Numbered from the stretch's first letter, positions 22,078-28,871 are shown. The stretch is DNA of 64,000 nucleotides from Actinomycetota bacterium (GCA_009702325.1 WLID01000003.1:39658-103657); one strand, 5' to 3'. Notes: a model not told the origin generated them from the sequence alone. A program made the numbers and translations.

Positions 22078-22199
22078 GGGTCTCCCTGAAATGTGGCTTC
22101 GCCGTCAAGGGCGCGCGCGAGCGGCGGCCCGCCGAACGCGCGCAGTCTAGCGCAGCGCGAGCATCGCGGCCTAGTGAGGTGTTCTTTGTGCACGAAATC

Positions 22200-22625
22200 T
22201 CACAGCCCGAGCACGCCACGCTCGGCGCGCAGGTGCTGCACATCGGCGAATGCAAGCCGTGTTTTGGCTTGATCTGTCGCTTCATGCGGTACCGGCAGTG
22301 TCGCGCCACCCACGCCGACAGCAATACAGATTGCGACCGCGGTCGTGGTGGCTACCCGGAGGCCCGCGCCTCCCCACTGCCCGAAATGCACTCGCCGAAC
22401 ACGTGGGGGAACGGCGGGCATGACGTGTTCGGCATGGACGTCGGGCTGTTCACGCACCAGGGTCACGAGAAATCGCATCTGCTCGCGTCGCGCGCGACAT
22501 TCCTCGCACGCCGCGAGGTGTCGGCGCAATCGGTGGGAGCCAAACTCCGAAAGCTCACCGTCGAGGTCGAGCGAGATCGCACGCAAAACAAGCGCACAGG
22601 CCGATTCGGTTCCAGCGAGCGACAT
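22200..22625 (-). CDS. zf-HC2 (ZAS-type) anti-sigma-factor-like membrane protein, no adjacent sigma factor
   Basis: From ATG 22625: CALVLRAISLDLDGELSEFGSHRLRRHLAACEECRA carries the H-x3-C-x2-C motif. One predicted TM helix (VATTTAVAICIAVGVGGATL). Confidence 0.6.
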   Translation of the reverse strand: MSLAGTESACALVLRAISLDLDGELSEFGSHRLRRHLAACEECRARREQMRFLVTLVREQPDVHAEHVMPAVPPRVRRVHFGQWGGAGLRVATTTAVAICIAVGVGGATLPVPHEATDQAKTRLAFADVQHLRAERGVLGL

Positions 22626-22656
22626 CAATGGGTCAGACGCCGTTGCGTCGGGCGAG

Positions 22657-23712
22657 TTAGGACGTTGTGTCTGCGAATGTCCCGCCCGCGCGGAGCTCGG
22701 CCTCAGACATCGGCCATCGCTCAACGGGGAAGTGACACGCGGCGACGTGATCGCCTTCGAACGAGGTCAGTCCAGGCGTCTCGACATCACACGTGCCTGC
22801 GTGCGCACGCGGGCACCGTGGATGGAAGACGCAGGCTGAGGGTGGAGACACGGGCGATGGGACGTCGCCCTGCAAGACGATGCGCGTGCGCTTCTGACCG
22901 TTCGCGTCGAGCTCTGCCCGCGGCACAGCCGAGAGCAAGGCTGCCGTATAGGGATGCCGGGGGTGCTCGTAGAGCAGCTCCGACTCTCCCATTTCAACGA
23001 CTCGGCCGAGGTACATCACCGCGATACGGTCGGAGACCTGTCGGATCACCGACAGGTCGTGCGAAATGAACACGTAGGTGAGGTCGAACTCGCTCTGGAG
23101 GCTCTTCAAGAGATTGAGGATCTGTGCCTGCACCGACACATCAAGGGCAGAGACCGGCTCGTCACACACGATCAGCTTCGGCTGCAGCGCGAGTGCGCGC
23201 GCAATGCCGATCCGTTGACGCTGGCCGCCCGAGAACTCATGCGGATAACGGTTGTAGTGCTCGGGATTGAGCCCCACGCGTGCGAGTAGCTCCTGCACGC
23301 GGCTCTTGATGTCCTTCTCGGTGCCGTGAATCACAAACGGCTCGCCCACAATCTGCCCGACCGTCTTTCGGGGGTTCAAAGACGAATAGGGGTCCTGGAA
23401 GATGATCTGCATCTGTTGGCGCAGCTGCCGCATCCGATGGCGCGAAAGATCTGTGATGTCTTCACCTTCGAAGAGGATGCGTCCCGAGGTTGCTTCAAGA
23501 AGCTTCACCATCAGCCGCGCGGTTGTCGTCTTGCCACAGCCCGACTCGCCAACGATCCCGAGGGTCTCTCCCTTGTTGACGACGAGCGAGACGTCCTCGA
23601 CAGCGTGAACGACACCCTTGCCGCGCGCGAACACGCCCTGCTTCACCGAGAAGTGCTTCGTCAGATGCTGGAGCTCGACGAGTGGTGTTTGGGTGGAGCC
23701 GGAAGCGGTCAC
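22657..23712 (-). CDS. oligopeptide/dipeptide ABC transporter ATP-binding protein (OppF/DppF-like)
   Basis: Walker A GESGCGKTT, signature FSGGQRQR, Walker B LIVCDEP, and a C-terminal oligopeptide-type extension with cysteines. Confidence 0.9.
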   Translation of the reverse strand: MTASGSTQTPLVELQHLTKHFSVKQGVFARGKGVVHAVEDVSLVVNKGETLGIVGESGCGKTTTARLMVKLLEATSGRILFEGEDITDLSRHRMRQLRQQMQIIFQDPYSSLNPRKTVGQIVGEPFVIHGTEKDIKSRVQELLARVGLNPEHYNRYPHEFSGGQRQRIGIARALALQPKLIVCDEPVSALDVSVQAQILNLLKSLQSEFDLTYVFISHDLSVIRQVSDRIAVMYLGRVVEMGESELLYEHPRHPYTAALLSAVPRAELDANGQKRTRIVLQGDVPSPVSPPSACVFHPRCPRAHAGTCDVETPGLTSFEGDHVAACHFPVERWPMSEAELRAGGTFADTTS

Positions 23713-24737
23713 TGGGAGATCTCCTCAGACACCTTGTCGCGCCACTCGGCCTGCTTGCGCTCGGTCGAGAGGAAGCATGAGTCGAGGTGCCCACCTGGAA
23801 GCTGCACGAGCTTTGGGCTCTGCTTGTCACACGCGTCGAACCGGTATTTGCAGCGGGGATTGAAAGGGCAGCCGGGCGGCGGGTTCAGCAGGGACGGCGG
23901 CGACCCCTCGATCGGGATCAGAACGTCAAGCTTTCGGTCGACGCGCGGCATCGATTCGAGAAGCCCCCACGCGTACGGATGCTGTGCGGCATGGAAGATC
24001 TCATAGGACGGCCCGTACTCCATCGCGCGGCCGCCGTACATGACGAGCACGTGGCTTGCGGTCTCGGCAACGACACCGAGGTCGTGGGTGATCAACATCA
24101 CGCCGACGTTGAAATCACGCTTGACCTTGTCGATGAGCTCGACAATCTGCGCTTGAACTGTCACGTCGAGGGCCGTGGTGGGCTCGTCCGCGATCAGCAC
24201 AGCCGGGTTGTGGACGAGTGCCATCGCGATCATCGCGCGCTGCCGCATGCCGCCTGAAAACTGGTGCGGATAGTCGCGTGCCCGTACGGCAGCGTTTGGA
24301 ATTCCAACTGCATCAAGTAGTTCGACTGCCCGTGCTTGCGCGACGGACTTCGACACATCCGAGTGTGCGCGGACAGCCTCAGCGATCTGCGATCCGACGC
24401 GGTACATCGGGTGCAAACACGCGAAGGGATCCTGAAAGATCATCGATACGTCCTTGCCACGCACCTTGCGCAGCTCGGCGGGCGACAGCTTCAGCAGGTC
24501 ACGCCCCTCGAACAGGATCTCGCCCGTGATGTCTGCGAAGTTGCGATTGAGCAGACCCATGATCGCCAAGCTCGTGACGCTCTTGCCGGAGCCAGACTCA
24601 CCGACGACGCCAAGTGTCTCTCCGCGCTCAAGCGTGAATGAGAGGTTCGAGACGGCCTGGACGACACCATCGCGTGTGCGGAAGCGGACAGAAAGGTCGC
24701 GGACTTCGAGGAGGGACGAGCCCCCCACCCCAGCCAC
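23709..24737 (-). CDS. oligopeptide/dipeptide ABC transporter ATP-binding protein (OppD/DppD-like)
   Basis: Walker A GESGSGKS, signature FSGGMRQR, Walker [16 protein letters not shown] overlap with the downstream gene. Confidence 0.9.
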
Positions 24738-27599: not shown

Positions 27600-27693
27600 G
27601 ATGGGTGTCTCCCTCCTTTTCCCGAACCTTGGTGGATCGGGGATTGCAGTGACCGAATGGTAAGACGAAAAACGCCGTTCACAGTTGGTTTTC

Positions 27694-28659
27694 TCAACGC
27701 TCGGCCCGCACATCGAGTGCGTCGCGCAGGCCGTCGCCGAGCAAATTGAAAGCGAGTGTGGTGATCACAAGAAAGAGGCCTGGGAAGAACATGAGCCACC
27801 ACGCAGTGTCGTAGTAGCGCTGGGCGTCGTTCAGAAGTCCGCCCCACGACGCGGTGTCCGGCGGAACGCCGAGGCCAAGATACGAGAGGGCCGCTTCGAA
27901 CAGGATGCTCTGCGGAATCAGCAGCGTCGTGTAGACGATGATCGGGCCGCTCAAGTTCGGGAGGATCTCGCGGAAGATGATGCGTGTGTCGCTTGCACCA
28001 AGCGAGCGGCTTGCTTCGACGAACTCCTTCTCGCGAATCGAAAGCGTGAAGCCGCGCACGAGACGTGCGATGTACGGCCACGAGAAGATGACAATCACCG
28101 CAATCACGAGCGCGAGGCCTGGCTGGATCGCGATTGGCCCTGCGATCACGCAGCCGTTCTTGTTCGAGCTACAAGCCGCGACGATTCCGATCGAGATCAG
28201 CAGCTGCGGCATGGCGAGCATGACGTCGCCTGTCCGCGAGAGGATCGTGTCGACGATGCCACGGTAGAAGCCGGCGATCATCCCGACCACAAGGCCGATG
28301 AGCACGGCGATACCACTTGCCACTACACCCACGATCAGCGAGGTGCGAGCCCCGTACATCGTGCGGACGAACAGGTCGCGCGCCTCCCCGTCTGAACCGA
28401 ACCAGAAAGCGGACGTCGGCCCCTTGGGCAGTCCGAACGAGTCTTGCATGATCTGCTGGTACTGCTCGGTGTTCGGATGCCCGGTTACTGCCGAGGCGAT
28501 CGGCCCACCGAAGATGGCGATCACGATCAGCACGCCGATCGTTCCGGCCCCGAGCAAGGCGGCGCGGTCTTCCTTAAACCGCAGCCAGAAGAGCTCGAAT
28601 CCACTTCGCGTCACCGTCTGCGGAGCGACACCTCCGACCGTGGTGGGGGCTGCCGTCAT
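27694..28659 (-). CDS. peptide ABC transporter permease (OppC/DppC-like)
   Basis: TM-rich, with EAA loop EFVEASRSLGASDTRIIFREILPN. I prefer ATG 28659, which is 10 nt after GGGGGAG. Confidence 0.9.
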   Translation of the reverse strand: MTAAPTTVGGVAPQTVTRSGFELFWLRFKEDRAALLGAGTIGVLIVIAIFGGPIASAVTGHPNTEQYQQIMQDSFGLPKGPTSAFWFGSDGEARDLFVRTMYGARTSLIVGVVASGIAVLIGLVVGMIAGFYRGIVDTILSRTGDVMLAMPQLLISIGIVAACSSNKNGCVIAGPIAIQPGLALVIAVIVIFSWPYIARLVRGFTLSIREKEFVEASRSLGASDTRIIFREILPNLSGPIIVYTTLLIPQSILFEAALSYLGLGVPPDTASWGGLLNDAQRYYDTAWWLMFFPGLFLVITTLAFNLLGDGLRDALDVRAER

Positions 28660-28705
28660 AGGCAGCACACTCCCCCGAAATGGGTTACGTCAGACACGGC
28701 TCGGA

Positions 28706-28734
28706 AGTATAGGAGGTTACGCAAGCGCACAACG
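28706..28734 (-). promoter_or_regulatory. candidate promoter for the transporter cassette inside the atp operon
   Basis: On the minus strand, TATACT (28711..28706) lies in an AT-richer 212-bp spacer. Only a weak -35 (CGTTGT) is found 17 nt upstream. Confidence 0.25.
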
Positions 28735-28871
28735 TCCGAAATGCAGGACTTTTTCTCCCATTGCGGCAATCTTTCCGCTCCGCCGCGCCCTCGCAGGATC
28801 GCTCGTAAACCGCTCGCGCGTCGCGCGTTGCAGAGATTCGCGTCAGGATTATCCGAGGTCGAACGGTGACG

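Follow-up and report, generated by a model that had tools for sequence, protein, structure and literature searches.

The genes for the bacterial F1Fo ATP synthase are broken between atpG (gamma) and atpD (beta) in Cyanobacteria and plastids, Chlorobi, Bacteroidetes, Aquificae and Beggiatoa (Koumandou & Kossida 2014, PMC4154653; Niu et al. 2017, PMC5709465). The separated parts can lie as few as four open reading frames (ORFs) apart, as in a Geobacter (PMC4154653), and Actinobacteria are listed as having an unsplit, standard atp unit (PMC4154653; PMC5709465). Here we analyze a 64,000-nucleotide stretch of DNA from a soil bacterium of the Actinomycetota (GCA_009702325.1, WLID01000003.1:39658-103657), referred to throughout as the window, in which the atp genes form two blocks on the same strand, 6.8 kb apart. 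Between atpG and atpD lie six non-atp genes (22200-28659), five for an Opp-type importer and one for a membrane protein with a zf-HC2 domain; in PMC4154653, groups with as few as four ORFs between them are counted as split. Our reading, to which we give a probability of roughly three in four, is that the two blocks reflect an ancestral gamma/beta split with a plastic gap, and that the region would be transcribed as three units, with an independent promoter for atpDC and no coupling between uptake and the synthase.

We scanned one genome per prokaryotic species for AtpG and then searched the loci found with all window proteins by tblastn. The closest AtpG relatives (63-78% identity) come from metagenome-assembled genomes (MAGs) labelled Gaiellaceae, Gaiellales, Thermoleophilia or Actinomycetes, and by sequence similarity the window comes from a member of the Gaiellaceae/Gaiellales (Thermoleophilia, Actinomycetota); its atpD is 76-90% identical to that of other Gaiellales. 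In none of the 58 informative Gaiellales-like loci is atpD adjacent to atpG. The gene directly after atpG is oppC in 36 of the 58, a MoxR gene in 16 and another gene in six. All 36 oppC-first loci share with the window the unusual order oppC-SBP-oppB-oppD-oppF (SBP, substrate-binding protein), and atpD is reached 6.3-9.5 kb downstream in 27 of them. Outside the Gaiellales, the atpG-atpD gap measures 25-204 nt in 14 of 18 loci, Firmicutes and NC10 included. These unsplit loci include three other Thermoleophilia (L060-L062; AtpG 53-54% identical), the gaps in other Thermoleophilia and Firmicutes being 25-146 nt, and three Acidobacteria among the 18 are split. Among metagenome proteins, homologues of the SBP (L086, L087; 68-73% identical) and of the zf-HC2 protein (L088-L091) were found in a window-like context, glyA-upp-GT4-atp...G-importer-zfHC2-atpDC-metH. 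Because adjacency is absent from all 58 loci and the metagenome homologues share this context, we regard the split as a trait of the order and not of one strain. The best explanation is that the blocks separated at gamma/beta no later than in the common ancestor of the sampled Gaiellales. An earlier note on this DNA, made from its sequence alone, had proposed comparing the atpG-atpD interval in the closest genomes; the split proves to be common across them.

Gene identities and order in the window were established by ORF listing and Pfam scans. All eight F1Fo subunits were found, in canonical order inside each block (B-E-F-H-A-G and D-C). In the direction of transcription, the features are:

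33987-34247, minus strand: small hydrophobic ORF of 86 aa with C-terminal transmembrane-like stretches, AtpZ-like only in its position and hydrophobicity; the gene is also called in L081 (identical to the window) and L082 (near-identical)
33604-33987, minus strand: small polytopic ORF of 127 aa, AtpI-like by position and hydrophobicity only; also called in L081 and L082
28872-33607, minus strand: first block, atpB-atpE-atpF-atpH-atpA-atpG (a, c, b, delta, alpha, gamma)
28872-29765, minus strand: atpG, last gene of the first block
28660-28871, minus strand: atpG-oppC spacer, 212 nt, 59.4% GC
28706-28711, minus strand: TATACT (-10-like), 46 nt ahead of the ATG of oppC; predicted importer promoter
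27694-28659, minus strand: OppC-like permease, 321 aa (Pfam BPD_transp_1 and OppC_N)
25770-27599, minus strand: family-5 SBP, 609 aa (Pfam SBP_bac_5, E-value 1e-49)
25720-25751, minus strand: GC-rich stem-loop of 14 bp followed by UCUCUUUCUCU, just after the SBP gene; terminator scan match
24737-25702, minus strand: OppB-like permease (Pfam BPD_transp_1 and BPD_transp_1_N)
23709-24737, minus strand: OppD-like ABC ATPase (Pfam ABC_tran and oligo_HPY)
22657-23712, minus strand: OppF-like ABC ATPase (Pfam ABC_tran and oligo_HPY)
22200-22625, minus strand: membrane protein of 141 aa with a ZAS-type zf-HC2 domain (Pfam zf-HC2, 30.6 bits; cut-off 22.2)
22078-22199, minus strand: zf-HC2-atpD spacer, 122 nt; predicted atpDC promoter and 5' untranslated region
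22144-22149, minus strand: TAGACT (-10-like), 66 nt ahead of the ATG of atpD; predicted atpDC promoter
20677-22077, minus strand: atpD, beta (Pfam ATP-synt_ab with its N and C domains)
20239-20667, minus strand: atpC, epsilon (Pfam ATP-synt_DE_N)

The first block was matched by ATP-synt_A, ATP-synt_C, ATP-synt_B, OSCP, ATP-synt_ab and ATP-synt (gamma) with E-values from 4e-13 to 6e-97, and neither small ORF upstream of atpB matched a Pfam or NCBIfam model. The atpZ/I-B-E-F-H-A-G run described in the earlier note therefore holds from atpB to atpG, but the Z/I identity is without profile support. Its six co-oriented genes between gamma and beta have the identities and order that it gave them, and the two spacers and TATACT lie where it placed them; the upstream spacer is indeed AT-richer, but only modestly (the window as a whole has 63.7% GC). 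For the SBP gene, a start at 27713, overlapping oppC, gives way to the GTG at 27599 behind a strong ribosome-binding site, AAGGAGGGAG, which leaves no overlap; the start of the zf-HC2 gene is likewise corrected to the ATG at 22625, so that this gene does not overlap oppF. Among oppB, oppD and oppF, whose start codons were checked, stop and start codons abut or overlap.

The gap that these genes occupy is, on the best explanation, a long-lived and plastic inter-operon region. In the 16 MoxR-first loci, which we call type II, a MoxR (AAA_3)-DUF58-VWA cluster is followed by a second Opp-type cassette with the standard order SBP-oppB-oppC-ATPases, and atpD does not lie within the 10-kb flank downstream of atpG; a few loci hold both the importer cassette and the MoxR set. 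In L007, the zf-HC2 gene and its usual upstream neighbor, a member of a family that we call c14, are inverted as a pair onto the opposite strand between oppF and atpD, with a TAGACT-type box retained. Other minus-strand genes occupy the same region in L010 and L018, and L012 and L016 carry a DUF1996 gene on the opposite strand between oppC and the SBP gene (L016 13262-14104, minus strand). Between the window's clade (the window, L006, L058, L063, L086 and L087) and the L002 group, importer proteins are 42-65% identical and the SBP about 24%, against 78-87% for AtpA, AtpG and AtpD; among the L002, L024 and L049 groups, the importers share 63-81% identity. These values suggest that the window-clade importer was replaced in situ long ago, or went through a burst of divergence, between atp flanks that were conserved.

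Several observations on the gap stand beside this picture. Type II loci include L014, L020-L023, L026-L028, L030, L040, L042, L046, L050 and L052 (for example L021 10963-16285), with two VWA proteins. The c14 proteins are membrane proteins of about 120 aa with a GFFVGNRGPxR motif and no Pfam match (L016 19206-19559; L024 17045-17416; L007 17547-17909, minus strand). In most Gaiellales, the c14 gene immediately precedes the zf-HC2 gene, and the two can be inverted as a unit, as in L007; c14 is missing from the window's clade. A homologue of the DUF1996 gene lies just downstream of atpC elsewhere (L087 17719-18636), as a small gene that moves around the neighborhood.

How, then, would beta and epsilon be expressed at this distance from the rest of the enzyme? 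We aligned the regions upstream of atpD from 30 Gaiellales loci, using dinucleotide shuffles (n = 500) as a null. Of the 30 loci, 27 have a single TA[GA][AGT]CT box at a distance of 55-79 nt upstream from the ribosome-binding site (shuffles: mean 0.5, maximum 4), within a nearly invariant block, CG.T.CG.TAGACT. The window's atpD has its own ribosome-binding site, AGGGAGA, at 22081-22087. On both strands of the 64-kb window, TANACT is rarer than expected, with three occurrences against 16.5 +/- 3.9; each of the three is intergenic and precedes a gene in sense orientation, and two of them bound the importer region, at oppC and at atpD. Because it is rare, intergenic, sense-oriented and placed upstream of genes, TAnACT may be the preferred -10 hexamer of this organism, purged from coding sequence; the hexamer fits TANNNT, the actinobacterial -10 consensus. 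The conserved TAGACT, the rarity of TANACT and the opposite-strand gap genes of L007, L010 and L018 together argue that atpDC is most likely transcribed from its own promoter. The alternative posed in the earlier note, that beta and epsilon are either read through a transporter operon or served by a promoter of their own, was the right framing, and the boxes in 27 of 30 loci favor the second.

The third TANACT (46397-46402, minus strand) precedes the GTG of an acyl-CoA dehydrogenase gene (45239-46390) by 6 nt, a geometry that suggests a leaderless mRNA. In two relatives, the automated AtpD calls are 498 aa long (L088 10712-12208; L090 10721-12217) and probably over-extend the N terminus across the conserved TAGACT region; we place the canonical start about 30 codons downstream because of a conserved CAGGAG ribosome-binding site and the alignment. 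Neither boundary spacer has an unusual RNA fold (z = +0.37 for 28660-28871 and +0.92 for 22078-22199), and Rfam gave no match with E <= 1 in window 19000-37000.

The other boundary, upstream of oppC, carries the predicted importer promoter. Here TC[CT]TATACT is kept in all six loci of the window's clade, and in many loci outside it TATACT is replaced by TATGCT, TATAGT or TAAGCT. Inside the importer operon, the stem-loop after the SBP gene is the only outstanding terminator-like match of the terminator scan. It has a minimum free energy of -43.6 kcal/mol (z = -4.7; none of 200 shuffles folds as well) and is followed by a U/C-rich tract. We folded the related SBP-oppB spacers shorter than 400 nt, five longer ones being left out, and found a perfect GC-rich hairpin of 10-17 bp at the same position in 43 of 43, in both cassette types. 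The structure is conserved and the sequence differs at each locus (for example L007 around 13870-13965, L035 and L042). A stem-loop at this place is a familiar device for favoring the binding protein over the membrane components in ABC importer operons such as malEFG. We infer that the hairpin is an intra-operon attenuator or a stabilizer of the mRNA 3' end; it would also attenuate read-through toward atpD.

With two permeases, two oligo_HPY-type ATPases and a family-5 SBP, the importer has the makeup of the PepT family (Opp/Dpp/Nik) by Pfam. No component reached an equivalog cut-off in NCBIfam: the best model for the OppC-like permease is Opp4C, below that cut-off, and only the OppF-like ATPase passes a subfamily model. 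The ATPases match dipeptide/oligopeptide ATPase models, and nickel and glutathione models match the importer as well. The closest solved structures to the SBP are the peptide-binding proteins 8upi, 2wok and OppA (E-values 6e-28 to 1e-14). The label of peptide transporter is therefore reasonable but unproven, and nickel, an opine or another compound is also a possible substrate.

The sixth gene of the gap encodes a protein with one predicted transmembrane segment after its N-terminal zf-HC2 domain, and its zinc ligands, C-x25-H-x3-C-x2-C (C10, H36, C40, C43), are invariant in 18 homologues. NCBIfam anti-sigma models match it below cut-off only. The upstream neighbor is oppF in the window and usually c14 in relatives; no sigma factor gene is adjacent to the zf-HC2 gene in any locus, nor is there one among ten small window ORFs tested. 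The earlier note's ZAS anti-sigma-like protein keeps its domain and its zinc motif, but a co-encoded ECF sigma factor was not found. Because no cognate sigma gene was found, we call it a ZAS-domain membrane protein and do not treat it as a demonstrated anti-sigma factor.

These results are brought together in our preferred reading, that of two blocks and three transcription units. The first unit, atpB to atpG, would be transcribed from upstream of the small AtpZ/I-like ORFs, and the second, the importer, from the TATACT upstream of oppC, with the stem-loop enriching the SBP message and damping transcription into the distal genes. The third, atpDC, would start from the conserved TAGACT and use its own ribosome-binding site, so that an independent promoter, rather than translational coupling to gamma, would govern the supply of beta and epsilon. 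After their separation, the blocks would have stayed loosely linked on one strand. Promoter activity, transcript boundaries and importer substrate are predicted here from sequence. On this best explanation, no mechanism couples peptide uptake to the expression of ATP synthase, and the link between them that the earlier note had entertained is neither shown nor needed, as there is no positive evidence of co-regulation. That note had also stated what would undo its case, namely that the arrangement be common in the lineage, with a simple atpDC promoter. This is largely what we find, given the absence of adjacency in all 58 loci, the boxes in 27 of 30 and the genes of the gap.

Four points weigh against the three-unit reading. 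The Opp-type importer and the zf-HC2 gene have been kept in the gap across the order, which is more than a neutral 'junk gap' predicts. The window has no terminator-like structure after atpG or after the zf-HC2 gene, so that some read-through into atpDC is possible. A generic sigma-70 scan of the window found no site of the TTGACA-N17-TATAAT type; this is expected for actinobacterial promoters, although it does not count as evidence in their favor, and it is the reason why we relied on comparative conservation. Finally, the conservation of CG.T.CG.TAGACT extends past a minimal -10 hexamer, and the block could also be a site where a regulator binds.

The alternative that survives best, though we consider it unlikely, is a supra-operon, in which the 14 kb from atpB to atpC are largely one transcript or are joined by overlapping read-through, with selected co-expression of the importer and the ZAS protein. 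The supply of beta and epsilon, or F1 assembly, might then be tied, for example, to peptide availability or to an envelope or redox signal sensed by the ZAS protein. All the genes do lie on the same strand, with short spacers and with the missing terminators just mentioned. However, the roughly 50 successive genes between 1693 and 51564 lie almost without exception on the minus strand, which is an unusually long stretch of one orientation, and the co-orientation of the importer with the atp genes is therefore uninformative for co-transcription. The gap is filled by the Opp cassette and zf-HC2 gene in 36 of 58 loci and by the second Opp type in most others, the far more diverged window-clade cassette sits in the same slot, which may reflect selection for an importer there, and the zinc ligands of the zf-HC2 protein do not vary. 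Against this, relatives have in the gap genes on the opposite strand, the zf-HC2 pair in inverted orientation, or unrelated MoxR-DUF58-VWA and other genes spanning more than 10 kb. Moreover, conserved -10-like boxes stand exactly at both unit boundaries, a strong hairpin follows the SBP gene in every related spacer folded, and the ZAS protein has no partner sigma factor, either adjacent or among the ten small ORFs.

A related proposal concerns an element that precedes atpD in relatives of the window. A 10-codon ORF lies about 150 nt upstream of atpD in 21 related loci (L002, L003, L005, L007-L011, L016-L018, L024, L025, L031, L036, L037, L045, L047, L049, L055 and L059) and in L088 and L090; it is not present in the window's clade. 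An example is:

L024 17980-18045: upstream ORF and hairpin element

In 19 of the 21 loci, an ATG or GTG stands exactly 10 codons before an invariant TGA, and in the other two the ORF has 11-12 codons; the peptide consensus is M-F-P-S-L-V-T-S-Y-V. In most loci, a TACTGT or TAGTCT box precedes the start by 6-9 nt, a leaderless-like arrangement; L007 and L010 have a Shine-Dalgarno sequence in its place. The ORF is followed by CTCGAYCAYG and then by a 6-bp hairpin with compensatory changes in five of its six pairs, which is the only hairpin supported in the consensus RNA structure of the 200-nt atpD leader of relatives. The codon-position test gave 284 synonymous to 782 non-synonymous changes, against 220 to 773 in the +1 frame, which is weak for coding; that the ORF is coding is suggested, not proven, mainly by its fixed start and stop codons and by switches between Ser codon families. 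The element goes with atpD and not with the zf-HC2 gene. It has no Rfam match, L024 17400-18300 giving chance-level hits only (E 1.3 and 4.3). It may be a leader-peptide/attenuator or a second-promoter device for atpDC.

There is also a stronger version of selected linkage, in which the importer, the orphan ZAS protein and atpDC would form a regulatory module in Gaiellales, and the upstream ORF and hairpin would add a leader-peptide attenuator in most of them, the window's clade excepted. We hold this to be quite improbable. If it were true, the synthesis of beta and epsilon, and hence F1 assembly, would be tuned apart from the rest of the enzyme by read-through from the importer promoter, by the ZAS protein, or by both, and the attenuator would represent a previously undescribed control of ATP synthase subunit stoichiometry.

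It is very improbable that this strain recently acquired a mobile transporter island by horizontal transfer, inserted into an intact atp operon. A 6.5-kb non-atp block does break an otherwise canonical operon, and the cassette proteins, at 42-65% identity to those of sister Gaiellales, are much less similar than the atp proteins (86-89% identical), which suggests exchange of cargo at some time. However, genomic islands are recognized by an integrase or transposase, by direct repeats or a tRNA target and by deviant composition, and none of these was found. The borders of 22200-28659 show no meaningful direct or inverted repeats, a tRNA search found none, and Pfam detected no recombinase, integrase or transposase domain, in agreement with what the earlier note had read by eye. 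The GC content of third codon positions (GC3), which that note had suggested comparing, is 0.77-0.82 in the six intervening genes, within the range of the atp genes (0.71-0.86), and there is no GC step between the importer region and the atp flanks. In addition, the slot is occupied in every informative Gaiellales-like locus, and within the window's clade the SBP has diverged to 66-73% identity while remaining in place. Because of this divergence in place and of the occupied slot throughout the order, any replacement of cargo must have been ancient and in situ, not recent. A recent transfer or mobile element was therefore rejected, on the matching GC and GC3 and on the absence of repeats and tRNA, and the word 'cassette' is misleading if it is taken to mean a recent insertion, since the composition is fully ameliorated and the cargo ancient and variable.

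That the window is an assembly chimera, two contigs joined at one spacer, has nothing in its favor except the unusual gene order and is hardly credible. At least 23 contigs encode an identical AtpG, and L081 matches window 19000-37000 with 100% identity. L082, which belongs to a different sample and is a scaffold of 1.35 Mb, has 62 mismatches in 18 kb (99.64% identity) and is colinear with the window through both spacers. The same gene order recurs in dozens of species-level MAGs, and the colinear independent assemblies rule out misassembly.

Two features of the wider window were also recorded. Between metH and a LytR_cpsA_psr gene lie tandem paralogues of 226 and 220 aa without a Pfam match (14617-15297 and 15313-15975, minus strand). 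They are not at that place in L088 and L090, where the LytR gene follows metH directly, and L063 has one copy downstream of atpC. At 48445-53257, a phosphate-transporter-like cluster has an unusual layout: two BPD_transp_1 permeases (51564-50599 and 50599-49694) precede a PBP_like_2 binding protein (49518-48445), all on the minus strand, and a divergent plus-strand gene pair ends with a PhoU-domain gene (52586-53257).

The consequences are mainly for how this locus is described. A whole actinobacterial order, abundant in soil metagenomes, joins the lineages with an ATP synthase operon broken at gamma/beta, which corrects the textbook and survey statement of an intact actinobacterial atp locus and reinforces the view of this junction as the operon's preferred, tolerated breakpoint. 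The earlier note had called the arrangement undescribed. A full-text literature search for Gaiella with ATP synthase and operon found no paper, and the surveys list Actinobacteria as unsplit, but the gamma/beta breakpoint itself is well documented. Annotators and operon predictors should not take this co-oriented run of 14 kb as one operon. The analysis also offers a candidate -10 motif, TAnACT, for an uncultured lineage and, in the conserved upstream ORF and hairpin before atpD of relatives, a candidate regulator of beta/epsilon supply. At present, no new mechanism is revealed.

It is instructive to compare the parts of the locus with their best-known counterparts. Like E. coli OppABCDF and DppABCDF, the window's importer combines two permeases, two oligo_HPY ATPases and a family-5 SBP; unlike them, it has the order C-A-B-D-F, with the SBP between the permeases. 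The malE-malF REP of E. coli is reportedly an intra-operon stem-loop after a binding-protein gene, an observation ascribed to Newbury et al. in 1987. The Gaiellales hairpins resemble it as stable structures directly 3' of the SBP gene and before the permease and ATPase genes, but they are not REP-family repeats, each locus has its own sequence, and their function is proposed by analogy. The zf-HC2 protein shares with the ZAS factors RsrA, RslA, RsdA and ChrR an N-terminal zf-HC2 domain with H-x3-C-x2-C and an upstream Cys; unlike these factors, it has no cognate ECF sigma gene, adjacent or among the ten ORFs.

As for the synthase genes, the window has the subunit set and internal order of the canonical actinobacterial and firmicute atpIBEFHAGDC operon and, like many Gram-positive bacteria, carries glyA-upp-GT4 upstream and small hydrophobic ORFs before atpB. 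It departs from that operon in that atpG and atpD are not adjacent, which makes translational coupling of gamma and beta impossible. In this respect it resembles the known gamma/beta-split loci: the Gaiellales break falls exactly between atpG and atpD, beta and epsilon stay together, each block keeps the canonical order, and beta and epsilon are presumably under an independent promoter. In contrast to known splits at distant loci, the blocks of the window lie on the same strand 6.8 kb apart (6.3 to more than 10 kb in the order), a closer linkage than in Cyanobacteria. The gap differs from other gamma/beta splits in its semi-conserved cargo, an Opp-type importer and a ZAS protein, and the lineage is actinomycetotal. 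What is new is thus a lineage-level instance of a known split, in an organization that is not itself of a new kind.

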